From an uncultured Clostridia bacterium (GTDB lineage Bacteria; Bacillota; Clostridia; TANB77; CAG-508), in assembly GCA_934162205.1 (NCBI GenBank), contig CAKPIA010000006.1:11882-75881 (forward strand): a stretch of 64,000 bases of DNA. Reading direction: 5' to 3'. The first letter of the stretch is position 1, and each line of letters begins with the position of its first letter. This document shows positions 3,005-63,002 of the stretch, one piece after another. A model generated the notes under the pieces. It was not told the origin of the DNA. It did not search any database and worked only from the letters and a program-made list of their open reading frames with translations. Made by a program: the position numbers and the translations under genes.

Positions 3005-4711
3005 ATGATGAATTTTAAAGAACAAATATCAGAAGCAATAGAAAAAGTTATAAATGTTGACTCTAAAAAATTAGAAACATTTATAGAAGAACCTAAAGAT
3101 CAAGAAAATGGAGATTATGCTTTTCCTTGTTTTAGGTTGGCAAAAGAATTAAAAAAAGCTCCACAAATAATTGCTCAAGAGATATCACAAAATATAGAAA
3201 TTGATAATAAATATGTTGAAAAAATTGACGTGGTAGGTGGATATCTTAATTTTTATATAAATAAAGATACATTAGCAAAAGAAGTTGTAAAAGAAATAGC
3301 AGAAAAAGAGGAATACGGAAAAAGTGAAATAGAAAATGGAAAAACTATATTAGTAGAATATTCATCTCCCAATATTGCTAAACCATTTCATATAGGACAT
3401 TTAAGAACAACATTAATAGGAAATGCATTATATAAAGTTTATAAATATTTAGGATACAATACAGTTGGAATAAATCATTTAGGTGATTATGGAACACAAT
3501 TTGGTAAAATGATAGAAGCATATAAATTATGGGGAAATGAGTATAATTTAGAAGAAGATCCTATAAATAAAATGATGGATATGTATGTAAGAATAAATGC
3601 ATTGTGCAAGGAAGACGAAAAAGTATTAGAAAATTGTAGAGAAAACTTTAAATTATTAGAAGAAGGCGATGAATACTGTACTAAACTATGGGAAAAATTT
3701 AAAGATTTAAGCATGATAGAATTTAATAAAATATATGACATATTGAATGTAAAATTTGATTCTATAAAAGGTGAAGCATTTTATGCAGATAAAACAGACA
3801 ATGTTTTGAAAATATTAGAAGAAAAAGGAAAAATAACAGAATCAGAAGGTGCAAAAATTGTAAATTTAGAAGATGTAGGAATAGAAACACCTGCAATAAT
3901 ACAAAAGGCAAATGGTTCTTCAATATATGCAACAAGAGATTTGGCTGCAATTATATATAGAGCACAAACATATGATTTTGATAAATGTTTGTATGTAGTG
4001 GCATATGAACAAAATTTACATTTTAAACAAATTTTTGAAGTAGCAAAATATTTAGTAGATGAAAAATATTATAAAGGATTAATACATGTATCATATGGAA
4101 TGGTACAATTACCAACAGGAAAAATGTCAACAAGATTAGGAAATGTAGTAAAAATAGAAGATTTGATTAATGAAACAATAGAAAAGGCAAAAGAAATAAT
4201 CGTTTCAAAAAATCCGGAATTAAATGATAAAGATGAAGTGGCAAAAAAAGTTGGTTTAGCAGCAATAATATTTAATACATTATCAACAGTGACAAATAAA
4301 GATCAAATTTTTGATTGGAATACAGCATTAAATTTCCAAGGAGAAACAGGCCCATATATTCAATATACATATGTAAGAACACAAAGTGTATTAGAAAAAG
4401 TTGGAGATATTCCAAAATATAATGAATTTGATACAAATGCTTTAACAGATAGTTATTCACAAAATATATTAAAACTTATATATAAATTTGAAGATATCTT
4501 AAAACAAGTTGTAGATAAAAATGAACCATCAATTTTATCAAGATATTTAATAGATCTTTCAAAAGCATATAGTTCTTTTTATAATGAAAATAAGATAATT
4601 GTAGAAGATGAAAATGTAAAAAAAGCTAGAGTTTTTATAACATATGCAACTGGAAAAGTATTAAAATTAGGAAGCGCTTTATTAGGTATAGAAATGCCAA
4701 ATAAAATGTAA
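3005..4711 (+). CDS. argS: arginyl-tRNA synthetase
   Basis: HIGH motif (PFHIGHLRTT). 568 aa. Class I aaRS with DALR anticodon-binding C-terminus. Confidence 0.93.
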   Translation: MMNFKEQISEAIEKVINVDSKKLETFIEEPKDQENGDYAFPCFRLAKELKKAPQIIAQEISQNIEIDNKYVEKIDVVGGYLNFYINKDTLAKEVVKEIAEKEEYGKSEIENGKTILVEYSSPNIAKPFHIGHLRTTLIGNALYKVYKYLGYNTVGINHLGDYGTQFGKMIEAYKLWGNEYNLEEDPINKMMDMYVRINALCKEDEKVLENCRENFKLLEEGDEYCTKLWEKFKDLSMIEFNKIYDILNVKFDSIKGEAFYADKTDNVLKILEEKGKITESEGAKIVNLEDVGIETPAIIQKANGSSIYATRDLAAIIYRAQTYDFDKCLYVVAYEQNLHFKQIFEVAKYLVDEKYYKGLIHVSYGMVQLPTGKMSTRLGNVVKIEDLINETIEKAKEIIVSKNPELNDKDEVAKKVGLAAIIFNTLSTVTNKDQIFDWNTALNFQGETGPYIQYTYVRTQSVLEKVGDIPKYNEFDTNALTDSYSQNILKLIYKFEDILKQVVDKNEPSILSRYLIDLSKAYSSFYNENKIIVEDENVKKARVFITYATGKVLKLGSALLGIEMPNKM

Positions 4712-4737
4712 TAGTAATAAAGAAAAGGGGAAGTTTA

Positions 4738-5436
4738 ATGAAAAATAAAAAAGTATTAATAGGAGTGATAGTGGCAGTTGTAGTTGTTGCAATTGCATTA
4801 GTAGGAGGATTTGTTTATAATCAACAAAATAAAATAAAACAAGAAAACATATTAAAAGAAGAAGCAGAAAAGTTAGCTAAATTAGATTTGACAAAAGATG
4901 AAATAGATATGGATATTAAAACAAAAGGAAAATATGCAATTGTAGAAAAAACAATGAAAGATTATATGAAAGAGACACAAACAGTAATGACAGAATTAAT
5001 AGACTTATTTAATAACAGTGATTTAGATAAAACATTATCAAGTGAAAATCTTTCAAAAGATGCACCAGAATTTGTAGAAACAAAAGAAAAACTAGCATCA
5101 TTAAAAACAAAATTAAGTGAATATTCAGAAAAATGTGATAAATTATTAAATGCAGAAAATATAGAGAATGCTATAAATGATAAAGGTGTAAGCAAATATT
5201 ATAAAGAATTATATGTTAATTTAATGCTAGATGACGAAACTAAAGAAAGCATAGAGAAAGAAAATACAGAATTAAAAAATTCAATTGAAGAAGTTAATAA
5301 GGCTATTGAAGGGTTAGAAAAAATAGTTAACTTTTTAACTGAAAATAAAGATGAATGGACAGTAACAGATGGAAGAATACAATTCAAGAGTATAACAAAA
5401 TATAAAGAATATTATCAAATAGTAAATGAATTATAA
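4738..5436 (+). CDS. hypothetical single-pass membrane protein with coiled-coil-rich ectodomain
   Basis: N-terminal hydrophobic segment VLIGVIVAVVVVAIALVGGFV followed by a K/E-rich sequence. No recognised domain. Confidence 0.55.
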   Translation: MKNKKVLIGVIVAVVVVAIALVGGFVYNQQNKIKQENILKEEAEKLAKLDLTKDEIDMDIKTKGKYAIVEKTMKDYMKETQTVMTELIDLFNNSDLDKTLSSENLSKDAPEFVETKEKLASLKTKLSEYSEKCDKLLNAENIENAINDKGVSKYYKELYVNLMLDDETKESIEKENTELKNSIEEVNKAIEGLEKIVNFLTENKDEWTVTDGRIQFKSITKYKEYYQIVNEL

Positions 5437-5460
5437 AATAATAAATATAAATAAAAAGAT

Positions 5461-5510
5461 GGCAATGGAAAATTATATAAATATAGTTTTCCATTGCTGT
5501 TTTTTTATTT
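5461..5510 (+). terminator. rho-independent terminator (stem GCAATGGAAAA/TTTTCCATTGC, then T-run)
   Basis: 11-bp perfect stem followed by TGTTTTTTTATTT. Confidence 0.65.
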
Positions 5511-5584
5511 AATAGAAAAAATGTATTGCATAAAATAATATATAATGATAATATGTAGAAAATTGAAAAAAGAGGTCGAAGAAA

Positions 5585-6454
5585 ATGAATATTTTAAAAT
5601 TAGAGGATTTAAAAGTAAATGAAATTGAAGAATTATTAGATAATGCTATTGATTTTAAAAGTGGTAAAAGAAAAGTTAGTTGTAATGATGATAAAGTTAT
5701 AGCTAATCTTTTTTTTGAGCCATCTACAAGAACACATTATAGTTTTGAAATGGCAGAATATAAATTAGGATACAAAACAATTGATTTTACAGCAGATACA
5801 TCAAGTATGAAAAAAGGAGAAACTTTATATGATACAATCAAAACATTTGAAAGTATAGGAGTAGATGCAGTTGTAATAAGACATAGAGAAGATATGTATT
5901 ATAATCAGTTAGAGAACATTAATATACCAATTTTAAATGCAGGAGATGGAACAAAGGATCACCCATCACAATCTTTATTGGATTTAATGACTATAAAAGA
6001 AGAATTTGGGAGTTTTAAAGGGTTAAAGGTATTAATAGTTGGTGATATAAAACATTCAAGAGTAGCACATTCTAATATAAAAGTTATGGAAAGACTAGGA
6101 ATGGAAGTATATACATCAGGTCCAGAAGAATTTAGAGATGAAAATTTACAATTTGTTGATTTTAACGAAATGCTACCTAAAGTGGATGTTGTAATGCTAC
6201 TTAGAATACAATTTGAAAGACATGATGATAAAATGAGCATGACAAATGAAAAATATAATACTTTATATGGAATTACTATGGATAAAGTAAACAAAATGAA
6301 AGAAAATGCTATAATAATGCACCCAGCACCATTTAATAGAAATGTTGAAATTTCTGATGATGTTGTAGAATGTAGTAAATCTAGAATATTTAAACAAATG
6401 ACAAATGGAGTATATGTAAGAATGGCTATGCTAGATAAAGCTTTAAATAACTAA
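5585..6454 (+). CDS. pyrB: aspartate carbamoyltransferase catalytic subunit
   Basis: FFEPSTRTHYSFE carbamoyl-phosphate binding motif. HPAPFNR motif. Close overall match to the remembered Bacillus PyrB layout. 289 aa. Confidence 0.85.
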   Translation: MNILKLEDLKVNEIEELLDNAIDFKSGKRKVSCNDDKVIANLFFEPSTRTHYSFEMAEYKLGYKTIDFTADTSSMKKGETLYDTIKTFESIGVDAVVIRHREDMYYNQLENINIPILNAGDGTKDHPSQSLLDLMTIKEEFGSFKGLKVLIVGDIKHSRVAHSNIKVMERLGMEVYTSGPEEFRDENLQFVDFNEMLPKVDVVMLLRIQFERHDDKMSMTNEKYNTLYGITMDKVNKMKENAIIMHPAPFNRNVEISDDVVECSKSRIFKQMTNGVYVRMAMLDKALNN

Positions 6455-28532: not shown

Positions 28533-30662
28533 ATGAAAAAGATAAAAAAAATGTCAATAGTTTTAATTATTTTATCTTTGTTATGCATGAGCATTGAAAC
28601 AACAGCATTTGCAAATATAAATGAAAATAATACAGCATTACATAAATTATGGACAGAATTGTCAGAAAAACAAAGATTAAATACAATAGAACCATTACCA
28701 TATAATGTTGATATTAATGATAGTATAAAAGCTTCTAATTTTTCAAAATATTTAAATTTAGGTGAAAGTTTAGAAACAAAATATGATATTAGAGATTATA
28801 TTAAAATGAATGTAAAGAATCAAGAAAATACAAATTGGTGTTGGGCGTTTGCTACAACAAGTGTATTAGAAAGTAATTTAGCAAAAACAAGAAATAAGTA
28901 TCTTACTTTTTCTCCAAAACATATAGCATATGCTACTACTGCTAAGTATTCTAATAAAGGATTTAATAAAGATGTAACTTCTGGTGCCAATCCATATTTA
29001 TCATTGGCGTATTGTGTAAATGGAAGCGGACCAGTATTAGAATCAAAGGTACCTTTTGATAATAATCAAAAAGAATTAACTGCATCTGAAATAAATCTAA
29101 AACCAGAAATTAAAGTAAATGAATATACTAAATTTTCTGATATATACAAAGAATATACTAATGGCTATGTTTCTAATTATACTAATGGATTAACAGAAAA
29201 CAATAAAACAACATATACAGATGCACAAGTAAAAGTAGCAAGAAATAAAATTAAAGAATATATAAAAAAATATGGAGCTATAACATCTTTAACTAATATT
29301 AGTAAATTAGAAAATTATTATCAATTAGTAGATGTAGATAAAGATGGAAAAAATGATCAATTAACATATTATTGTAATGATTCTACAGCAGAAGCAGATC
29401 ATCAAATTACAATAATTGGTTGGGATGATAATTTTTCTAAAGATAACTTCAAAATACCAGCAAAGAATGATGGAGCATATTTGGTATTAACTTCATATGG
29501 AGAGGATTTTGCTAATAAAGGTACATATTATGTTTCATATGATGATGCTCTTATAGAAACTTATTTATTTGGTGTAAGTGAAACTTCAGATGTGGATTAT
29601 GATAATATTTATCAATATGATCCATTAGGGTTTAGTTATCCAGGTACTTTTGCATCAACAGAAACACAAAACGCCGTAAATAATATTTATGCAGCTAATG
29701 TGTTTGAAACAAACAAAAAGAAATCTTATGAAGAATATTTAAAAGAAATTTCAATTTACATTCCAAAGACTTCTGATGTGCAAGTTTATGTAAATACAAA
29801 TAATGATGATAAAACTAAAATAGAGTTAGTTGCATCACCAGGAATATTAGAAAGTGGATATCATACAGTAAAATTGTCTTCTCCACTAAAGCTATCAGGA
29901 AACAAATTTGTTGTGTGTGTAAGATTAAGTAGCGAGGATGGTGCCGAAGTTCCATTAGAATTAAATTACAAATCAAATGGAGTTACAACTGTACCAACTT
30001 GGGATACAGCAACTAGTGAAAAAAATCAAAGCTTTGTATCATTAAATAAAAGTATGTGGCAAGATTTACAAGATTTGAATTATAAAGATACTAATATATG
30101 TTTAAAAGCTTTTACTAAATATCAGGAAGTAAAAGATGTTAAAGTAACATCTGTAAGTTTAAATAAAAATAAAATGACAATGACAGTTGGAGATAAATCA
30201 AATTTAGTGGCTACAATAAATCCTACAAATGCAACAAATAAAAATGTTAAATGGACTACATCTAATTCAAATATAGTAACAGTAACAGAAAAAGGAGTTA
30301 TTGAAGCAAAAAAAGAAGGAACTGCAGATATTACAGTTACTACTGAAGATGGATCAAAAACAGCAACTTGTAAAATTACAGTAAATAAAAAGACATCAAC
30401 AGATGATGATAAATATAAAAAAGATGATGAGGATGGTCAGGTTAAACCAGATAAAGACAGCAGCAAAGGAGAAGAAAATAAAAAGCCAACAACAACAAAT
30501 ACAACAACAACGACTACAGCTACTACTAAAGATACAACAACTGCAAATAAAATAATTCCATATGCAGGAACACAAATATTAGTAATAGCTGTTATTGCTG
30601 TAATTACGATATCATGGATTATAGTATTTATAAAATATAAAAAATTAAATGATGTAAAATAA
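28533..30662 (+). CDS. secreted papain-family (C1A) cysteine peptidase with Ig-like Big_2 domain, Thr-rich linker and C-terminal TM anchor
   Basis: Signal peptide. Catalytic Cys in NTNWCWAFATTSVLES. Catalytic His in ADHQITIIGWDDN. Big_2-like segment VTSVSLNKN...KITV. PTTTNTTTTTTATTKDTTT linker. C-terminal hydrophobic stretch plus KYKKLNDVK. Confidence 0.8.
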   Translation: MKKIKKMSIVLIILSLLCMSIETTAFANINENNTALHKLWTELSEKQRLNTIEPLPYNVDINDSIKASNFSKYLNLGESLETKYDIRDYIKMNVKNQENTNWCWAFATTSVLESNLAKTRNKYLTFSPKHIAYATTAKYSNKGFNKDVTSGANPYLSLAYCVNGSGPVLESKVPFDNNQKELTASEINLKPEIKVNEYTKFSDIYKEYTNGYVSNYTNGLTENNKTTYTDAQVKVARNKIKEYIKKYGAITSLTNISKLENYYQLVDVDKDGKNDQLTYYCNDSTAEADHQITIIGWDDNFSKDNFKIPAKNDGAYLVLTSYGEDFANKGTYYVSYDDALIETYLFGVSETSDVDYDNIYQYDPLGFSYPGTFASTETQNAVNNIYAANVFETNKKKSYEEYLKEISIYIPKTSDVQVYVNTNNDDKTKIELVASPGILESGYHTVKLSSPLKLSGNKFVVCVRLSSEDGAEVPLELNYKSNGVTTVPTWDTATSEKNQSFVSLNKSMWQDLQDLNYKDTNICLKAFTKYQEVKDVKVTSVSLNKNKMTMTVGDKSNLVATINPTNATNKNVKWTTSNSNIVTVTEKGVIEAKKEGTADITVTTEDGSKTATCKITVNKKTSTDDDKYKKDDEDGQVKPDKDSSKGEENKKPTTTNTTTTTTATTKDTTTANKIIPYAGTQILVIAVIAVITISWIIVFIKYKKLNDVK

Positions 30663-51336: not shown

Positions 51337-51422
51337 ATTAATAAAAAAAGTATTGTAAAATAAAAAAGTGTACAAAATAAATAAAGATAAAAACAAGGAA
51401 AAAATACAAAGGAGCAAAAAGT

Positions 51423-52883
51423 ATGAAAATAAAGCAAACTAAAGGTATTACATTAATAGCATTAGTAATAACAATTATAATATTATTAATACTAGCAGGA
51501 GTAACAATAACGATGTTGACAGGAGATAATGGAATACTAAAACAAGCAACAAATGCAAGAGAAACAAATAGTAAAGCAGAATTTGAAGAACAAGTAAAAT
51601 TAGCAGTAATAGCATCAAGAGTAAATGATACAGCAAGTATAGATTTAAAAGCATTAGATGAAGAATTAAATAAAATAAGTGGAACAATAATAACAAAATC
51701 AGCAGATAATAATTTACCATGGACAGTAAAAAAAGGAAGTTATGAAGTAACAATAACAGCAGATGGAACAATAACATCAAACACAACAGGAAAAGATGAA
51801 CCAGTTGTTGAATCAGAAGTTGTAAAACAAGCGAAATCAGCAATGCCAGAAGGAGCATCAATAGACGCAACTACAAATGAAAACACAGGAATAGTAATGA
51901 TAGATAGTAATCAAAATGAATGGGTATGGATAGAAGTACCACCAACAGTATTTACAACTGCAAAAAATAGTACAGATTATGATAATATAAAAGCAGATTT
52001 AATAGCATATGCAAGTGATTATAGGGAAAGTTATACAGATAAGTGGTATGCTATGGATGGAGAAACATTAGTAACAGCGAGTACAGAGGGATTAACAGAA
52101 GCACAAAAATTACTAAATAATGGATGTGGATTAACATATAATGAATATAATACAAATTATAATAAAATGTTAAGTAGCATATATAAAAATAAGGGATTTT
52201 ATATAGGGAGATATGAAGCTGGAATAGCAGGTAGTGATGAGAATACAAGCTTAGCAAGATATAGTAGAACAGAAATAACAAGCAACACACCAAAAGCTGT
52301 AAGCAGAAAAGATATGATACCATATAATTTTGTGACTTGTAGTGATGCACAACAATTAGCAAATGGAATGAGTACAGGAAATAAAACAAGTAGTTTAATG
52401 TATGGAATCCAATGGAATTTAGTATGTAAGTTTTTAGAAGTAAAAGGTAATTGGGATACAACTGAGAATACAGCACAATATTATATAAAACAAAATAGTA
52501 CAAGTTGGGGAAATTATGCTAATAGTAGTATAACATTATCAAGAGGAAAATATAATATAAATCCAAGTTTATCATCAAGCATATGGACACCATTTGGTAC
52601 AGATACATTAAATTATGTAACATCAAGTAAAACCAATAGCAGTACATCATACTACCAATTATTAACAACAGGAGCAAGTGAAGATACTAACAAAATGAAT
52701 ATATATGATTTTGCTGGAAATGAATATGAGTGGATATTAGAGACTACTGCCAACACCTACAATCCTTGTAACGTTAGGGGAGGTAGTTGCAACAACGGTG
52801 GCAACAATCCAGCTTCTTGTTGCAATGCCAGTAGGACGACTAACAGCAATTGCGTCATTGGACTACGTTCCTCACTTTATTAG
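51423..52883 (+). CDS. pilin-like N-terminus fused to an FGE/SUMF1-like domain, with Cys-rich C-terminal tail
   Basis: N-terminus MKIKQTKG/ITLIALVITIIILLILAGV resembles a class-III (prepilin) signal (G-hydrophobic-T-L-I-x-L), but with Ala where the conserved Glu5 would be. C-terminal half matches the FGE-sulfatase fold signatures (YGIQWNLVCKF; FAGNEYEWI; NVRGGSCNNGG; NCVIGLRSS). Tail has six Cys. Confidence 0.7.
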   Translation: MKIKQTKGITLIALVITIIILLILAGVTITMLTGDNGILKQATNARETNSKAEFEEQVKLAVIASRVNDTASIDLKALDEELNKISGTIITKSADNNLPWTVKKGSYEVTITADGTITSNTTGKDEPVVESEVVKQAKSAMPEGASIDATTNENTGIVMIDSNQNEWVWIEVPPTVFTTAKNSTDYDNIKADLIAYASDYRESYTDKWYAMDGETLVTASTEGLTEAQKLLNNGCGLTYNEYNTNYNKMLSSIYKNKGFYIGRYEAGIAGSDENTSLARYSRTEITSNTPKAVSRKDMIPYNFVTCSDAQQLANGMSTGNKTSSLMYGIQWNLVCKFLEVKGNWDTTENTAQYYIKQNSTSWGNYANSSITLSRGKYNINPSLSSSIWTPFGTDTLNYVTSSKTNSSTSYYQLLTTGASEDTNKMNIYDFAGNEYEWILETTANTYNPCNVRGGSCNNGGNNPASCCNASRTTNSNCVIGLRSSLY

Positions 52884-53041
52884 TAGAGTGGTACTCTAAA
52901 GCCGTGATTAGAGTATAGCAATAAAATAACTTTAAGTGGAAAAAAGAGATTGTATTTTATAGTGTATACATTTGAAAAATAATGTATACACTATTTTTAT
53001 ATCAATATAAATAGATCAAAAACATAGGAATTTTTTAAACA

Positions 53042-53070
53042 TTGCATTTTACATAAAATTGTGGTAAAAT
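53042..53070 (+). promoter_or_regulatory. sigma-A-type promoter TTGCAT-17-TAAAAT with TG extension
   Basis: Hexamers with 17-nt spacing, 76 nt upstream of the 155-aa ORF. Confidence 0.4.
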
Positions 53071-53146
53071 AAAAACTATAAAAAGTAAAAAAGCTAATCA
53101 AAAATTAGGTTAGCATACATTATGATTAAGACAGGAGGGAAAATTT

Positions 53147-53614
53147 ATGAAAACTTTAGCTTATGAAGTTGTTTTTCGGTTAGAAAATACAATACATGAA
53201 CAAATCATTAATAATGGATTTATAGTTGTTTACTTTAATGAAGAAGATAATTTTAAGTTTTTAGAAGGCTTACTAACAAATGATTATATGTATGGAAAGC
53301 TGGAAAATGATAAATGGATTCTTAATTTGTATTCTTCATATATTCTTCAGGAATTATATTCTAGAAATGATGCAATGAAATTAACTGAAGAATTAGTAAA
53401 TCAAATGGAAATTTCTTGGCAAGGAATTATGGGAATAGATGAGCTTGAATTTCCATTTGAGATTAATTTAGAATTGGAATATCCAATTAATAATGGTAAA
53501 GAACTTGTAAAGGAAAAAGTAAACATTGCTTGTGGGAGACCATTAAGTGATGTTGAAAAGTATAAAAGTCTTATTGAAGATTTTAAAAATAATAAAGTTT
53601 TTGTAAGTTTATAA
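53147..53614 (+). CDS. hypothetical cytoplasmic protein (155 aa), monocistronic
   Basis: AGGAGGG RBS. Has its own promoter-like element and a strong terminator. No recognised motifs. Confidence 0.55.
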   Translation: MKTLAYEVVFRLENTIHEQIINNGFIVVYFNEEDNFKFLEGLLTNDYMYGKLENDKWILNLYSSYILQELYSRNDAMKLTEELVNQMEISWQGIMGIDELEFPFEINLELEYPINNGKELVKEKVNIACGRPLSDVEKYKSLIEDFKNNKVFVSL

Positions 53615-53706: not shown

Positions 53707-54630
53707 ATGTATAATTTTAGAACAGATTTAGCAACAGAAAGAAGAGATATATACAAAAAAGCAAATAGTATAGAAAATGATATAAATGGTATAGAAAGTA
53801 CAAAAGAAGAAATTAATGATAAAATCTCAGTAGAAAAAGTAAAAATATTAAATGAAGAAGGAGAAAAAGCAATAGGAAAACCTATTGGAAATTATATTAC
53901 AATAGATATTAAAAAATTAAAATTAGCACAAGAAGAGGATATACAAAATGCATCAGAGGTATTAACAAATGAATTAAAAAATATTTTAGATATGCATGTA
54001 CAAAAACAAGATGAGATTATAATAGTTGGATTAGGTAATATATATGTAACACCAGATAGTTTAGGTCCTAAGGTAATTAATGAAATAGATGTTACTCGTC
54101 ATTTAATAAAATATGTGCCAGATGTTGTAGAAAAAGATACAAGAAGTGTAAGTGCTGTTGCTCCTGGAGTTTTAGGAACAACAGGAATAGAAACAGTTGA
54201 AATTTTAAAGGGAATTATAGAAAATACTCATCCAAAATTAGTTGTAGTAATTGATGCATTAGCATCTAGAAGTATAGAAAGAATTAGTAGTACAATACAA
54301 ATTTCTGATACTGGAATAATTCCAGGTGGTGGCGTTGGAAATGCAAGAACAGAAATAAGTGAAAAAACTTTAGGAATTCCAGTAATAGCTTTAGGAATAC
54401 CAACAGTTGTAGAAACAGCGGTATTGGTAAATGATTCGTTAAATCTTTTTATAGATAAATTACAAAATGATGCCAAATCTAATTCATATTTAAATGAAAT
54501 AAAAGAAAAAGATAACTACGAAGAAATAAAAGATGCTTTAAATCCATCTGATTATAATATGATTGTTACTCCAAAAGAGATAGATGATTTAATAGAAAAT
54601 ATGAAAGATATAGTTGCAAGACGGCATTAA
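53707..54630 (+). CDS. gpr: germination protease (spore endopeptidase Gpr, MEROPS A25)
   Basis: IIVGLGNIYVTPDSLGPKV and ISDTGIIPGGGVGN match the remembered Bacillus Gpr (IVGLGNWNVTPDALGP; ISDTGIHPGSGVGN). Confidence 0.85.
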   Translation: MYNFRTDLATERRDIYKKANSIENDINGIESTKEEINDKISVEKVKILNEEGEKAIGKPIGNYITIDIKKLKLAQEEDIQNASEVLTNELKNILDMHVQKQDEIIIVGLGNIYVTPDSLGPKVINEIDVTRHLIKYVPDVVEKDTRSVSAVAPGVLGTTGIETVEILKGIIENTHPKLVVVIDALASRSIERISSTIQISDTGIIPGGGVGNARTEISEKTLGIPVIALGIPTVVETAVLVNDSLNLFIDKLQNDAKSNSYLNEIKEKDNYEEIKDALNPSDYNMIVTPKEIDDLIENMKDIVARRH

Positions 54631-54688
54631 TTTTGCAATAAATTAGTAATATTTTTTTCATAATAATCCTTCATACATTTGTCATAAT

Positions 54689-54717
54689 TTGACAAGACAG
54701 TAATAAAATGGTATAAT
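54689..54717 (+). promoter_or_regulatory. sigma-A-type promoter TTGACA-17-TATAAT (TG-extended) overlapping a TGTCA-N5-TGACA palindrome
   Basis: Perfect consensus hexamers with 17-nt spacer. TSS predicted about 25 nt upstream of the ATG at 54749. Confidence 0.55.
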
Positions 54718-54748
54718 GAAGAGGTGCTTTCAAAAAAAGGAGGAAAAT

Positions 54749-55495
54749 ATGAAAGAAAATAATAATACTAAACTAAGAATTGGACAAATAATATATGTAA
54801 GTTTAGCAATAGTTTTTTTAACAATATTTATAACAATAAACAATTTAAATAACCAAGAAATAGAAGTAGCTGATAAAACAGTAAATAATGAAATAGTAGA
54901 AGAAACAAATAAAGTAGAAGTAGCAGAACAAAGCAAAGAAACTAGTAGTAGAAGTACAATAAGAGAAAAAAGTGCAACAATAACAAGCAGATCTTCATCA
55001 AGTATTAGAGAAGCTGTATCAGAAGAAAAATATGTATCATTAGATGAAGTATCTATATCAAGAAATATGGATTTAACAGAAAGAACAGGATTATCAAAAG
55101 AAGATTTTAAAACATTAGTAGCAAATACAAAACAAGACACAACAAAGTTCTTCTATAATAATAGTGATACAATATATGACTTATGTAAAAAATATGAATT
55201 AAATGAAATATTTTTCTGTGGTTTAATAGCTGGTGAATCAGGATGGAATATAGCATCTAATCACAGAAATACTCATAACTATATAAGCTTAATGTCAAAT
55301 GGTAAATTATTAAGATTTGCAACTGTTGAAGAAGGATTAGAAAAAGCGGCTAGTACTCTTCACAATAAATATTTATCTACAAGTGGTAGATTTTATGCAG
55401 GTAAAACATTAGATGGTGTTAAAAAAAGATTTTGTCCAGCATCATCAACTTGGACAAATTTAATATATAAATGTATGAGTCAAATGGTAAATTAG
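54749..55495 (+). CDS. membrane-anchored glucosaminidase-domain protein (FlgJ/LytD-like N-acetylglucosaminidase fold)
   Basis: TM near the N-terminus. C-terminal GESGWNIASNHRNTHNYISLMS ... FATVEEGLEKAASTL resembles the glucosaminidase (ESGWG...NLFGIK) signature. Start placed downstream of the predicted TSS. Confidence 0.6.
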   Translation: MKENNNTKLRIGQIIYVSLAIVFLTIFITINNLNNQEIEVADKTVNNEIVEETNKVEVAEQSKETSSRSTIREKSATITSRSSSSIREAVSEEKYVSLDEVSISRNMDLTERTGLSKEDFKTLVANTKQDTTKFFYNNSDTIYDLCKKYELNEIFFCGLIAGESGWNIASNHRNTHNYISLMSNGKLLRFATVEEGLEKAASTLHNKYLSTSGRFYAGKTLDGVKKRFCPASSTWTNLIYKCMSQMVN

Positions 55496-55555: not shown

Positions 55556-55584
55556 GCATTTGCAAATATTATGTAAATATGATA
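55556..55584 (+). promoter_or_regulatory. sigma-A-type promoter TTGCAA-17-TATAAT with TG extension
   Basis: Near-consensus hexamers, 17-nt spacer, 36 nt upstream of the 778-aa ORF. Confidence 0.55.
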
Positions 55585-55619
55585 TAATATAAGATAGTAG
55601 TTTAAAAAAGGAGAATTGT

Positions 55620-57956
55620 ATGAAAGATTTAAAAGATATGTCTATTGGTGAAGTTTTAGAAAAAATAGGAATATTTGCAAGCAATATTGATTTTCAAATT
55701 TTTATTAAAGATGAACAATTAATTGAGGAAATTAATAATCTTTTTTCTCAAAAAAGACATACTACTAAAATGGATTATATTACTAATTTTATAAAAGAAA
55801 ATGAAAAAAATATAGATATTGAAAAATTTGTTTTGACACAGCTATATAGAATGGAAACAGTAAAAAGAGAAATGAAAAAAGAAAATAAAAGATTTGAGAT
55901 AAAACAAGTTGGAGAAAAGGTTTCTGTTCCTGAAGAAAGTATAGAAAGAAAGATGAATATAGCAAAAGAACTTTTAAAAAACTATAAAGGTAGTATATTA
56001 ATCTTAGATGAAAACAATAAAGAACAAATTGTAAATATGGATATTTTGAATAATGGAAAAACTTCTCAAAAAAATACTCATAAATTACAAAAACTTGATG
56101 AAAATGAAAGTTTAGATTTGATTTGTTCAACTTTAAGTTGGGAAGATATTCCAGATTTGGTTTCATCAAATGATCCTAATTTTTCAGAATATTTAATAGA
56201 CTATACTGTACAAAATACTGTTAATAATACTTTACCTACATATTATAATTGTAGTGAACAAGAAATAGAAAAGCATATGCAAACACCAGAGTACAGAAAA
56301 GAATTTTATAAGCGATTAAAAGAAACATTTAAAGAATATTCAAAGTTTATACAGGTTGATAAAATGATGGCTATAGGAATTTATAGAAACTTAAAGTATT
56401 TAGATGTTAAAGAGATTGAAGGAAATATGTGCAAATTAATTATAGAACAATTAAAAGAAATTTATAATCAAATTGATCCAAAAACAAAAACATCAAAAAG
56501 TAAGTTTAAAATTTTAGAAGATACAGATAGCCAAGAAAAAATAAGTATTTTTCCAAAAGAGTTAAAGAAAATGTTAGATGAAAACTTTATAGATAATAAG
56601 TTTATAGGGAAAAATACAATAAAAGCTATGAAAAGAGAAATATTGGAATATGAGGTTCCATTAACAGAATATGATCCAATAGTACTAAAACTATTAGAAA
56701 TTAATATGGATGAATTAATGCAAATATTAAATAATCCATCAAACTTTGAGTATTTAATGCAATATGAAATGATAAATGATGAGGTACTAGAATATGTATT
56801 AAATACAAAAAATGATATGCCAGTAAAGATATATGAGCAATTATTAAATGGTGGAATGATTGATAAACAATATATATTAGACTTATATTCAGATGGTATT
56901 ATTACTTTAGAACAAATAAAAGAGTTAAATGAATTTTCTGAATTACATATAGAAGAAATTGTTCAAGAAGAAGAAATGATAAGATTATATAAAGAATTTT
57001 ATATGTACGGAAAAGATGAAGAAACATTTAATAGTTATATGCAATTATATAAAGAATTAAGAGTTAAAGGTAAGGATATATCAGAAAAAAGAGAAAATGG
57101 AAATAGATTGGTTGAAGAACTTGGAGAAGATTTTGAAGAAGAGGATTTAAAACAAATGTATAAATTAGGAATTATTCCGGTTGATACTGCAATAGAGTGG
57201 GGAGGAGATTCAATAACTCAAGATATGTTTAACAAAGGAATATTAAAACCTATAGATGCTAAAAGATTATATAAAGAAAATGTTTTAAATTTAGATATGA
57301 TAAAACAAGTATTAAGATCAAAAGAAATATCAGATGAAGATAAATTAGCTTTAATTGGAAGTACTTTTGATGATGAACAAGATTTTGAAATGAAAATGGA
57401 ATTAATGCAATATTTAAATTTAGTTACAGACGAAAATAGTTCAAATAGTAAAGGCCAAAAACGTTTAAAAAGAAATAACAATTCTATAATAGATGTTAAA
57501 AATGCATATATTACAGATCCATTTGCAAGATGGCAATTAATATCTTTATTAGATAATGAATATTCACAAGAAGTTTTAAGAGATGGATATATTATATTTG
57601 AATTACCAAATATAAATGATGGTACTGTAATAATAGAAAAGATGTTTAAAAAATCTCAAAATAGAGTTGTTCCTTCTTATGGAAATGCTACATATATATT
57701 ATCTAAAAAACAATTTGATAAATCAAAAAATTATATAACTGATGAAACCTTAGGTGGTAAAGTTATAAATTTAGGAGAATTAGCAGAAGTAAGAGAAGCT
57801 AGAAATGCTGATAGATTGAATCATTCTAGTAGATGGGGAAGTAATATAAAGGATTATTTTGAAGTTGGAAAAGACCAAAGTAGATATACTGAAGAGCAAA
57901 TACAAAAAATAGATAAAACAATAGAAAGTATAGAAAATTCTAGAAGATTAAAATAG
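55620..57956 (+). CDS. hypothetical large acidic protein (778 aa), first gene of a two-gene operon
   Basis: GGAG RBS. No TM segment, no P-loop, no nuclease or peptidase motif that I can recognise. E/K-rich with helical character. Confidence 0.7.
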   Translation: MKDLKDMSIGEVLEKIGIFASNIDFQIFIKDEQLIEEINNLFSQKRHTTKMDYITNFIKENEKNIDIEKFVLTQLYRMETVKREMKKENKRFEIKQVGEKVSVPEESIERKMNIAKELLKNYKGSILILDENNKEQIVNMDILNNGKTSQKNTHKLQKLDENESLDLICSTLSWEDIPDLVSSNDPNFSEYLIDYTVQNTVNNTLPTYYNCSEQEIEKHMQTPEYRKEFYKRLKETFKEYSKFIQVDKMMAIGIYRNLKYLDVKEIEGNMCKLIIEQLKEIYNQIDPKTKTSKSKFKILEDTDSQEKISIFPKELKKMLDENFIDNKFIGKNTIKAMKREILEYEVPLTEYDPIVLKLLEINMDELMQILNNPSNFEYLMQYEMINDEVLEYVLNTKNDMPVKIYEQLLNGGMIDKQYILDLYSDGIITLEQIKELNEFSELHIEEIVQEEEMIRLYKEFYMYGKDEETFNSYMQLYKELRVKGKDISEKRENGNRLVEELGEDFEEEDLKQMYKLGIIPVDTAIEWGGDSITQDMFNKGILKPIDAKRLYKENVLNLDMIKQVLRSKEISDEDKLALIGSTFDDEQDFEMKMELMQYLNLVTDENSSNSKGQKRLKRNNNSIIDVKNAYITDPFARWQLISLLDNEYSQEVLRDGYIIFELPNINDGTVIIEKMFKKSQNRVVPSYGNATYILSKKQFDKSKNYITDETLGGKVINLGELAEVREARNADRLNHSSRWGSNIKDYFEVGKDQSRYTEEQIQKIDKTIESIENSRRLK

Positions 57957-57965
57957 GAGAAAAAC

Positions 57966-58805
57966 ATGGAAGAAACATTAAAAGATGTTTTAAAAAAGAA
58001 AAGTACTAATATAAGTATAAATAAAGATAGATATAAAAAAATATTAAATGATATTATGTTAGAAATAAAAGATAATAAAGAAGAATTTAAAAGGGTTAAT
58101 GATATAGATAAAAATATATATGATACTAATATAGATATAGAAAAGCTAGTAAATATTATAAAAAATTCACAAGAAAAAGAATTAATATTAAATAAAAATT
58201 CTAAAAATATATTAATATCTTATTATGGAAGTCCATATATTACTTTAGAATTGTGCATAGAAGCTATTAAAACGAATAATAAGCTAATTTTAGCAATAGA
58301 GGATTATATGTTAGGTATAAATAAATTAATAGTTAATATCGTTCAAAATATATTAAATGATTATAGAATCGAAAACAAAATATTTATATTTAATTTATTA
58401 GATAAAAATGCTATTGCTCAAAATGCTGAAATTGATAAAGTTATTTGTATAGGAAACAAAAATACATTTGAGCTATATAAAAAGATACAAATAAATAATT
58501 TGATATATTATCCGTTTAATAATATTGATTTATATTGCGATACAGATGAATTAGAAGAATTACAAGAAATAATATATCAATATGCAGAAAAGAATTTTAT
58601 TGATTTAGAGATTTATGATGAATTCGAAAATATTAATAAAGCTGTTGAATATTTAAATAAATATGGTAATAAGTTTTGTACAGTATTACTTACTAAATCA
58701 AAAGAAAGTGAAGAGATTTTTAGAAATAGTATTATATCAAATTATATCTTTGTAAATGAAAATCCATTTGGCAAATACGAGTTTAACATTGATGAATATA
58801 TATAA
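57966..58805 (+). CDS. hypothetical protein (279 aa), second gene of the two-gene operon
   Basis: Begins 10 nt after the upstream stop, with GGAGA RBS. No recognised motif. A weak resemblance between YYGSPYITLELCIEAIKTNNKLILAIED and the aldehyde-dehydrogenase NAD-binding stretch is noted, but it is not convincing. Confidence 0.6.
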   Translation: MEETLKDVLKKKSTNISINKDRYKKILNDIMLEIKDNKEEFKRVNDIDKNIYDTNIDIEKLVNIIKNSQEKELILNKNSKNILISYYGSPYITLELCIEAIKTNNKLILAIEDYMLGINKLIVNIVQNILNDYRIENKIFIFNLLDKNAIAQNAEIDKVICIGNKNTFELYKKIQINNLIYYPFNNIDLYCDTDELEELQEIIYQYAEKNFIDLEIYDEFENINKAVEYLNKYGNKFCTVLLTKSKESEEIFRNSIISNYIFVNENPFGKYEFNIDEYI

Positions 58806-58810
58806 ACATA

Positions 58811-58841
58811 AAAGAAGCGGTTTAATACTGTTTCTTTTTTT
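58811..58841 (+). terminator. probable rho-independent terminator (8-bp stem with G-U wobble, T7)
   Basis: AAAGAAGC ggtttaatact GTTTCTTT TTTT. Confidence 0.5.
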
Positions 58842-58842
58842 C

Positions 58843-58871
58843 TTGACAAAAGCAAACAAATATTCTATAAT
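58843..58871 (+). promoter_or_regulatory. sigma-A-type promoter TTGACA-17-TATAAT upstream of dinB
   Basis: Perfect consensus hexamers, 17-nt spacer, 17 nt upstream of the dinB start codon. Confidence 0.55.
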
Positions 58872-62398: not shown

Positions 62399-62458
62399 AA
62401 ATGCACTTAAAATATTAAATCTTTTAATAAATTTAATATTTATAAGTGCATTTTTCTT
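62399..62458. terminator. bidirectional terminator: long nested hairpin (AAATGCACTTA+AAATATTAAAT / ATTTAATATTT+TAAGTGCATTT) between convergent genes
   Basis: About 22-bp interrupted stem with a 10-nt loop, flanked by A-rich and T-rich runs. Confidence 0.65.
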
Positions 62459-62477
62459 ATATTAGATACTATTTATT

Positions 62478-63002
62478 TTAATTTTTACTCTTTATAAGTT
62501 TATACTTAAACCAATAATTTTTCTTTAGAAATTTTGAAAATTCATCAGCTGTTCCATAGTAGAACCCTTTTTTGTCTACTAGAAGGGAATTTTCATCATC
62601 TACATATAAATAAAAGAAATCAGTTGTTTCAAATATTTTATATAGCTTTGTATATTTTACTTTATCATATTTTAAATTGTTATATATTTTAAAATAATTT
62701 TTGCAAAATATAAATTTAAAAATTTTTTCATTTTGAATTTTATCGCTTTCAAAGTCTTTTTTTACCTTTAATGTCGGTTTTATTATTTTTAATACTAAAA
62801 ATAATGCTAGTAATATCATTGCTAAAAAAGCTTGTAAATAAAAATGATTAACAAAGTATAATATAATACATGTAAATAAAATCATACTCATAAATAAAAT
62901 ATAAAATGTATTTTTAAATCCAAATTTATTACTATGAAATTCTAGAAATTTTTTATAACTATTTTCAGTATATTTAGTTTTATTTTTAAATAATATTTTC
63001 AT
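62478..63002 (-). CDS. YcxB-like membrane protein
   Basis: 174 aa with two central TM helices flanked by soluble halves, the YcxB-like topology. No catalytic motif. Confidence 0.5.
   Translation of the reverse strand: MKILFKNKTKYTENSYKKFLEFHSNKFGFKNTFYILFMSMILFTCIILYFVNHFYLQAFLAMILLALFLVLKIIKPTLKVKKDFESDKIQNEKIFKFIFCKNYFKIYNNLKYDKVKYTKLYKIFETTDFFYLYVDDENSLLVDKKGFYYGTADEFSKFLKKNYWFKYKLIKSKN

Follow-up and report, generated by a model that had tools for sequence, protein, structure and literature searches.

What is the role of two adjacent genes that match no described system, lie among ordinary chromosomal genes, and of which the larger occurs in several discrete versions within a single species? 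The question is raised by a 64,000-nucleotide (nt) stretch of DNA from an uncultured Clostridia bacterium (contig CAKPIA010000006.1), referred to below as the window, in which two + strand open reading frames (ORFs), here given the working names BIG and SMALL, encode proteins of 778 and 279 amino acids (aa). A first-pass annotation, made from the letters alone, had picked out the pair as the best candidate in the window for something undescribed, and had regarded it as an accessory cassette without recognisable domains. As set out below, BIG matches no described protein, SMALL by sequence and model comparison descends from ProA (gamma-glutamyl phosphate reductase), and the place of the pair in the chromosome appears to be fixed.

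The operon and its two products

A word-indexed homology search with BIG recovered nine relatives, and the same nine again when a 51-sequence profile was used, while an exhaustive HMMER profile search of 1.84 billion representatives recovered 319 BIG-family clusters (50% identity) at E ≤ 1e-3. Of these clusters, 150 reach E < 1e-30. Most members are 750–850 aa long with an alignment over their full length, whereas for many others the profile alignment covers the C-terminal half only. BIG and a sample of 51 diverse members gave single chance-level matches at most in Pfam, NCBIfam and PADLOC, BIG had no match in PHROGs, and its profile found no PDB sequence even at E ≤ 10. The model of BIG, though confident, had no significant fold match in the PDB, its only (non-significant) neighbours being alpha-solenoid repeat proteins. 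No source names any member of the family, and all members come from metagenomes or metagenome-assembled genomes (MAGs). As far as sequence and model comparisons reach, BIG and its partnership with SMALL match nothing described, so that the choice of this pair as the window's best candidate has stood.

The operon is made up of the following elements, with positions in the window and residues of BIG where given.

55560–55588, + strand: sigma-A-type promoter with extended −10 (TTGCAA 55560–55565, 17-nt spacer, TG 55580–55581, TATAAT 55583–55588)
55610–55613, + strand: BIG ribosome-binding site GGAG, read directly, 6 nt before the BIG ATG
55620–57956, + strand: BIG ORF, 778 aa, a predicted soluble acidic protein of an undescribed family
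55620–57023, + strand: BIG residues 1–468, hypervariable allelic half with at least four allele classes in one species
56733–57317, + strand: BIG residues ~372–566, at least four copies of a short helical repeat, D-x3-LY-x2-G-x-I (motif scan, profile-profile comparison and model)
57420–57506, + strand: BIG residues 601–629, basic linker predicted to be disordered (isoelectric point, pI, 10.0), a second small variable patch
57507–57953, + strand: BIG residues 630–778, conserved C-terminal alpha/beta domain (alignments A3 and A4; strand and helix order from the model)
57955–57959, + strand: SMALL ribosome-binding site AGGAG, overlapping the BIG stop TAG (57954–57956)
57966–58805, + strand: SMALL ORF, 279 aa, ProA-derived with an aldehyde dehydrogenase (ALDH) fold; probable pseudoenzyme
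58810–58845, + strand: intrinsic terminator with 12-bp stem, 5-nt loop and T-run; hairpin proper 58810–58838

In AT-rich DNA of 20–30% G+C a consensus promoter by itself is weak evidence, because 51 promoter-like sites were observed against 48.9 expected, and the comparison with relatives is decisive instead. The 32-nt block at 55560–55591 (TTGCAAATATTATGTAAATATGATATAATATA), in which the spacer is counted, varies at one position at most among the window and loci L001, L009, L005 and L007 of relatives, in which the intergenic DNA around it is divergent or cannot be aligned, and distant relatives carry TTGnnA-17-TGnTAnAAT upstream of the pair. At the other end, the terminator hairpin has a folding energy of −12.1 kcal/mol (z = −4.4), and none of 200 shuffled sequences was as stable; L005 and L007 keep the hairpin and T-run with different stem sequences. 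The operon, bounded by a sigma-A promoter and an intrinsic terminator that are both conserved in relatives, is a real transcription unit, and its expression is inferred from the promoter to be vegetative and sigma-A-driven. Nine nt separate the BIG stop codon from the SMALL ATG, and the overlap of AGGAG with that stop predicts that translation of SMALL is coupled to that of BIG. The promoter, the tight coupling of the two ORFs and the closing terminator had all been proposed from the letters of the window, and each is borne out.

The promoter spacer itself (55566–55582) shows at most a single difference, a G just before TATAAT in L001 and L009, across lineages with only 69–77% identical coding sequences. 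It holds the direct repeat AAATAT-N5-AAATAT, and its conservation suggests either a bound regulator or a strict spacer requirement. As an operator shared with other genes it was rejected, since the motif occurs only once in the window and three near-matches equal the chance expectation. The T-run of the terminator abuts the −35 box of a separate dinB promoter (58843–58871), a perfect TTGACA-17-TATAAT whose spacer contains AAAC-AAAT-ATTC (AAAC-ATAA-GTTC in L007), resembling the Gram-positive LexA (Cheo) box GAAC-N4-GTTC. From these signals dinB is probably SOS-regulated and separate from the BIG–SMALL operon.

Both proteins are predicted to be soluble and acidic, with maximum Kyte-Doolittle values over 19 residues of 0.95 (BIG) and 1.39 (SMALL) and pI values of 4.96 and 4.84, and neither contains a P-loop, a signal peptide or a transmembrane segment, in agreement with the first-pass annotation. 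In the model of BIG, a mixed helical and beta-hairpin N-terminal region (residues 1 to ~350) is followed by runs of short helices across the repeat region, where profile-profile comparison of the repeat segments gave probabilities of 61–91% in five of six segment pairs (E = 1e-6 to 1e-4). This middle region resembles alpha-solenoid scaffolds (HEAT, ARM, TPR, PPR) in that short helices follow one another in pairs, four or more repeats being detectable. The helical region that precedes the C-terminal domain has the invariant residues Y514, D546 and F583, and is separated from that domain by the basic linker (pLDDT < 50 at residues 601–623, with a dip in identity in the 601–650 block). The C-terminal domain carries the family-wide motifs DPxxR, DG(H/Y)xIFxLPN, VIIEK, (G)xATY and HxxxWG; P663, E673 and H735 are invariant, and D633, D645, D655, A690, T691 and W739 nearly so. 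Longer family members whose C-terminal part is unaligned have no alternative Pfam domain, and instead carry a divergent copy of the same domain with its motifs kept. A PD-(D/E)xK nuclease fold was considered for this domain and is not supported, upon a test for a helix-strand-strand-strand-helix-strand core with D...(D/E)xK in strands 2 and 3 together with structural similarity to nucleases.

The claim that the pair has no recognisable domains holds for BIG and fails for SMALL, whose homology to ALDH and ProA rests on profile and fold comparisons. The window protein scores only 20.2 bits (E = 2e-4) and 16.7 bits against the NCBIfam ProA models PRK00197 and TIGR00407, far below their cut-offs of 289 and 317, and does not match Pfam PF00171 even at E ≤ 1; a 330-aa relative in locus L003 exceeds the PF00171 cut-off of 23 bits with a score of 28, the match spanning no more than 52 residues. 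A profile of 23 SMALL-family members, however, finds the ProA structures 1o20_A (E = 1.3e-13) and 8zok_A (E = 6e-12) in the PDB. In Foldseek comparison of the AlphaFold2 (AF2) model (pLDDT 84.7) with the PDB, the top 15 matches are all ProA or P5CS, with probability 1.00, E = 1.5e-10 to 4e-8, and TM-scores normalised to the query of 0.55–0.61 against ProA structures. By profile and model, SMALL is a ProA homolog with the three-dimensional ALDH fold, a degenerate variant of a known enzyme family.

What SMALL has lost is the catalytic part. The profile match falls into two blocks, query 21–199 against ProA 36–251 and query 211–268 against ProA 322–380, the ~70 residues of ProA between them (~252–321) being replaced by ~11. 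The order of elements is that of ProA (N-terminal helices, Rossmann-type domain, last part of the catalytic domain), whereas the length is 279 aa against ~415 aa. In Thermotoga maritima ProA the catalytic cysteine is Cys255 (PMC4271523). No conserved cysteine is present among the 23 SMALL-family members, and the CN[ATS]xE motif is absent from all 23. The deposited ProA chain is taken by us to carry a 12-residue tag, and Cys255 lies inside the deleted segment whether or not this presumed tag is counted. The ProA motifs ESRPNV, ILRGG, IPRGG and GNCH are all degenerate, at positions that are still conserved within the SMALL family. Because the segment with the catalytic cysteine is lost and the signature motifs are degenerate, SMALL is predicted to be incapable of gamma-glutamyl phosphate reductase chemistry, and it is probably a pseudoenzyme, having retained the N-terminal helices and the Rossmann-type domain. 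Non-catalytic ALDH proteins are known in omega-crystallin and in the inactive C-terminal ALDH domain of ALDH16A1, where the catalytic cysteine was likewise lost and the fold lives on in a structural or binding role; these are eukaryotic, are not derived from ProA and have no BIG-like partner, which makes the analogy a functional one only. Literature searches for ProA pseudoenzymes with a role in sporulation or defence brought up nothing relevant.

ProA pairs with proB, whereas SMALL pairs with BIG. Loci in relatives are labelled L001 and so on; for alignment A4 the genome scan gave 10 loci and the metagenome scan four. By HMM searches, SMALL lies next to BIG wherever a BIG can be detected and the contig extends to the expected position, namely in the window, L001, L002, L005–L018, L027, L029, L030 and L041, with gaps in relatives of 1–25 nt or an overlap. 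Adjacency is kept where the order is reversed (SMALL, then BIG, in L011, L012, L030 and L041; L031, of the same clade, has its contig cut at the start). The neighbours of SMALL are BIG and dinB or recG, and no amino-acid-kinase match was found in BIG or the flanking genes examined. The organisms concerned are uncultured Clostridia of the human (Hadza and others), sheep and rabbit gut, Candidatus Scatovivens among them.

Three departures from the usual arrangement were seen. L002 (9992–17436), the only locus with a duplicated BIG, has two BIG paralogs (961 and 955 aa) flanking one SMALL and a phosphoribosyltransferase gene. In L020 and L036 (~3650–5992; same species, one metagenome contig) BIG is called as 40 aa plus 723 aa, either a frameshift or pseudogene or an assembly error. 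In L003 and L004 (6133–10993), from a human oral Clostridiales MAG, the 330-aa SMALL homolog follows a 1296-aa protein instead of BIG, overlapping the end of its gene by 23 nt, among polC, dnaG, sigA and rpsP. The 1296-aa protein has no Pfam match, and was rejected as a BIG relative (no BLASTP relation; hhalign probability 1.3%); it shares with BIG only the short repeat motif P-x-D-x-K-x-L-(F/Y), seen in it as a repeated 'APEDLKxxFY', and may represent a second, analogous partnership for a dead ProA.

Allelic variation in the N-terminal half of BIG

Within one species, the first 350–470 residues of BIG exist in at least four alleles, at 45–62% identity.

Class A: window, L033–L035 and L038; N-terminal identity to the window 99–100%
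Class B: L023 and L024; 61%
Class C: L025 and L026; 59%
Class D: L001, L019 and L032; 45%

The variable region is sharply bounded. Between the window and L001, nucleotide identity is 94–100% in the flanks, drops to 64–74% at 55624–57024, and then abruptly returns to 91–100%; between the window and L023 or L024, the flanks are 97–99% identical and the first 468 codons of BIG 76%. The breakpoints differ between classes (~residue 350 in class B, ~500 in class D). Genomes of the four classes have Gpr proteins that are 98–100% identical, and DinB proteins, where these are on the contig, that are identical or nearly so (dN ≤ 0.006). Across classes the last 310 residues of BIG are 87–94% identical and SMALL 88–96%, SMALL being 88–100% identical whatever the BIG allele. 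The same partition is seen in Nei-Gojobori estimates of synonymous divergence (dS) and of the ratio of nonsynonymous to synonymous divergence (dN/dS), obtained for the window against L023, L026 and L019.

BIG residues 1–468: dS 0.60–0.83; dN/dS 0.38–0.51
BIG residues 469–778: dS 0.12–0.28; dN/dS 0.17–0.24
SMALL: dS 0.09–0.15; dN/dS 0.20–0.26
gpr: dS 0.05–0.18; dN/dS 0.02–0.06
dinB: dS 0.004–0.06; dN/dS about 0.1

Both genes are real and under purifying selection, as their dN/dS values (0.17–0.51 for BIG, 0.20–0.26 for SMALL) demonstrate. Because dS is so high in the first 468 residues, the N-terminal alleles are old and are moved by homologous recombination, with no recent burst of substitution. 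The N-terminal half is also the fastest-evolving part of BIG in two other clades. Silent cassettes of the antigenic-variation type were considered and rejected, as no partial copy of any N-terminal allele is found elsewhere in the 64-kb window.

Among polymorphic specificity loci, such a sharp boundary between variable and conserved parts is known from the comQXP pherotypes of Bacillus, the agr groups of Staphylococcus and the hsdS genes of type I restriction. Like BIG, these loci join old, discrete recognition alleles to a conserved output part, swapped by recombination among near-identical genomes. They have no sequence or fold relation to BIG, however, which has no membrane segment, kinase, methylase or target-recognition domain. 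Hypervariability of this kind is typical of recognition modules under balancing selection, and it partly rescues the idea of a conflict system.

Other spots of divergence from L001 are seen in the window at 53024–53600, 54624–55024 and 62424–63000 (72–86% nucleotide identity against a background of 94–100%). They cover, respectively, a 155-aa ORF at 53147–53614 without a Pfam match, the N-terminal membrane and low-complexity part of a 259-aa glucosaminidase-like protein, and a YcxB-like 174-aa ORF on the − strand. These spots are unlinked to the BIG allele class, because L023 is 97–99% identical to the window at the first two.

A fixed position in the chromosome

In the window the pair is preceded by gpr (TIGR01441, E = 5e-106) and the gene for the 259-aa protein, which is membrane-anchored with weak peptidoglycan-hydrolase or glucosaminidase similarity, and is followed by dinB (IMS, E = 1e-36), the location that the first-pass annotation had given. 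The same junction was examined in relatives by anchoring on the exact DinB protein of the window and not on the cassette, which avoids selecting loci by the cassette itself. This protein is found on 19 contigs; among the 10 places shown, eight have the full array of gpr, a 248-aa gene, BIG, SMALL and dinB, and the other two, on short contigs (L039 and L040), have only SMALL, or a cut gene, upstream of dinB. Relatives with 64–72% BIG identity have the order FTHFS, a ~155–159-aa gene, gpr, the 248-aa gene, BIG, SMALL, dinB and guaA, and the class C loci have the same array without the ~155-aa gene. The order BIG–SMALL–dinB persists at 44% BIG identity. The G+C content of BIG and SMALL (20–25%) equals that of their flanks.

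Relatives of the pair were likewise sought on mobile DNA. A tblastn search of 50,697 phage and 72,556 plasmid records found no relative of BIG or SMALL, and neither did IMG/VR. In PADLOC-DB 2.0 there was no match for BIG, SMALL, P0009 or the large protein of L003, and 51 BIG-family members gave two single chance-level matches only (E = 0.002–0.005). The distribution is not patchy, island-like or mobile. The description of the pair as an accessory cassette inserted among core genes is contradicted on each of these counts, all 10 DinB-anchored places shown carrying the cassette or its visible end, and conservation of the position in relatives is what the first-pass annotation had itself named as speaking for a core pair. 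BIG, SMALL and their neighbours have no PADLOC match above chance. By comparison of these loci, BIG and SMALL appear to be a fixed chromosomal pair that is vertically inherited and core.

The rest of the window is ordinary chromosome, with argS, glmM, priA-def-fmt, nusB, xseA/xseB, FTHFS and guaA, and nowhere in the 64 kb is the gathering score of an Rfam family reached. A secreted papain-like, lectin and Big_2 protein is encoded at 28533–30662. The segment 51339–53023, with an ORF of 486 aa (51423–52883) that has a prepilin-like N-terminus (MKIKQTKGITLIALVITIIILLILAG...) and no Pfam match, is regarded as an indel between strains, because it has no counterpart in the near-identical L001 (where blastn joins 51338 to 53024). 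A 465-aa homolog of this ORF (E = 9e-28) lies directly upstream of BIG in L005.

Neighbouring genes and the role of the pair

The reading tentatively preferred here, which we would put forward as the best available while stopping short of calling it probable, is that BIG and SMALL together form a cytoplasmic complex of two subunits, in which a variable half would serve recognition and a conserved half the output, and that the gene pair is expressed vegetatively and inherited vertically in uncultured, spore-forming gut Clostridia of low G+C content. Produced in vegetatively growing cells from the strong sigma-A promoter, the two proteins would assemble in the cytoplasm, with SMALL, as a structural or nucleotide-sensing subunit, docking on the conserved C-terminal half of BIG; this half is proposed because the SMALL sequence does not track the N-terminal allele. 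The N-terminal half of BIG would be the recognition (specificity) module and its C-terminal domain the output module. The target would itself be variable, a phage, a mobile element or another partner in genome conflict, as is suggested by the resemblance of the allelic pattern to the specificity loci comQXP, agr and hsdS. From the repeated adjacency to recG and dinB, the complex may act on or near DNA.

Several observations weigh against this. Systems of conflict and defence are usually patchy and mobile, whereas the pair is fixed, syntenic and absent from PADLOC. The two-gene anti-phage systems in PADLOC-DB do share with it a compact two-gene operon, a constitutive promoter and a fast-evolving large protein, but their models are matched neither by BIG and 50 further family members nor by SMALL or the neighbours. 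The neighbouring genes are mostly ordinary housekeeping or sporulation genes, and the link to DNA repair could be due to chance. An acidic character, such as both proteins have, is unusual among DNA binders. The mean dN/dS in the variable half is below 1, pointing to old alleles with relaxed constraint, and positive selection is not demonstrated.

The main rival explanation is that the pair is sporulation-associated and structural or morphogenetic, its products being mother-cell cytoplasmic proteins deposited on the spore in the manner of a coat. We consider this doubtful, and with it its corollaries that the fast-evolving half of BIG would be exposed at the surface and that SMALL would be a coat component recruited from an enzyme. 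Coat proteins are fast-evolving and frequently descend from enzymes, and the absence of signal peptides and transmembrane segments from both acidic, helical proteins would suit such a role. Genes of sporulation are found repeatedly beside the pair, in contexts that are independent of one another. The window has gpr and a dpaB-like flavoprotein; L013 has a divergent pair of Gate-domain proteins, which in our reading resemble spmA/spmB, together with a Germane protein, and the layout of genes in L014–L018 is similar; in L011 and L041 YtfJ lies directly upstream of the pair, a position taken in L012 and L030 by a 182-aa ORF; and L002 has BofA and DUF2508. Such adjacency is weak evidence, however, as sporulation genes are common in these small genomes, and the conserved block starts exactly at the sigma-A −35 box and carries TGnTATAAT. 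A sporulation-sigma promoter was rejected upon comparison of the promoters, the possible upstream sigma-F/G −35 bases being unconserved and a CATA-type −10 absent. No Pfam spore coat or sporulation family is matched, save a chance-level YlbD_coat match in one of the 51 members.

A second alternative, in our judgement also rather unlikely, holds that the pair is a lineage-specific accessory factor of DNA repair or replication that works with RecG or DinB, and that the N-terminal divergence reflects weak constraint together with recombination with related species. In its favour is the operon-like SMALL–BIG–recG arrangement, with 5–18 nt between BIG and recG, across a whole clade (L011, L012, L030, L031 and L041). 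BIG–SMALL lies directly upstream of dinB in three sublineages, recA, recX and scpA are nearby in L041, and parA-parB is upstream of the pair in L027; one helical repeat of BIG has a weak MerR_2 helix-turn-helix-like match (E = 0.01), and its linker is basic. In the window, on the other hand, the conserved terminator insulates the pair from dinB, for which there is a separate, perfect promoter. Pfam, PDB profile and fold searches detected no domain of nucleic-acid binding or nuclease type, both proteins are acidic, and a dS of 0.6–0.8 in one half of one gene, against ~0.004–0.18 in the flanks, is hard to explain by weak constraint alone.

Some loci also have genes of conjugation nearby. In L027 (11344–18376; GCA_037194325.1, 33% BIG identity) the pair lies between parA-parB-DUF4446 and a conjugation-type cluster of four TrbC/VirB2-like pilins, PrgI, a TraC-like protein and a VirB4-like ATPase, and in L002 a TraG/VirD4-like gene is found ~6 kb upstream of the pair. 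The conjugative element beside the pair in L027 may be a chance insertion.

That SMALL is instead an active, unusual ProA-type reductase in a metabolic operon of proline or related aldehyde chemistry, with BIG as scaffold or substitute for the ProB kinase, is very improbable: its homology to ProA and the proB–proA-like order of a large gene followed by a ProA-like one are outweighed by the deletion of the segment with the catalytic cysteine, the lack of any conserved cysteine in the family (PMC4271523 for Cys255), the degeneration of all four ProA motifs, and the absence from BIG of amino-acid-kinase or PUA similarity in any search.

To return to the preferred reading of a two-subunit recognition and output complex, a more specific form of it, towards which considerable scepticism is in order, would make BIG and SMALL an as yet unknown kind of chromosomally fixed sensor-effector module of immunity or genome conflict. 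Its ancient recognition alleles would be kept under balancing selection, and its conserved half would work with a ProA-derived pseudoenzyme that possibly reads NADP(H) or a related nucleotide. If this were true, the module would contain a component, the ProA-derived pseudoenzyme, that has been seen in no described system of defence or surveillance.

Whatever its role, the pair brings together a sizeable family (the 319 clusters) and an obligate partnership that curated databases, solved structures and source annotation do not cover, in abundant but uncultured Clostridia of the human and animal gut. It offers a clear case of an amino-acid-biosynthesis enzyme turned, by all appearances, into a non-catalytic subunit, and, in a cytoplasmic protein, a system of alleles within one species whose variable part is sharply delimited, a pattern that usually marks the recognition of something variable. 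If BIG and SMALL serve defence or genome surveillance, they would be a core-encoded system of the sort that island-based discovery pipelines miss by design; if they are housekeeping proteins, they would mark a lineage-specific cell process that has not yet been described.

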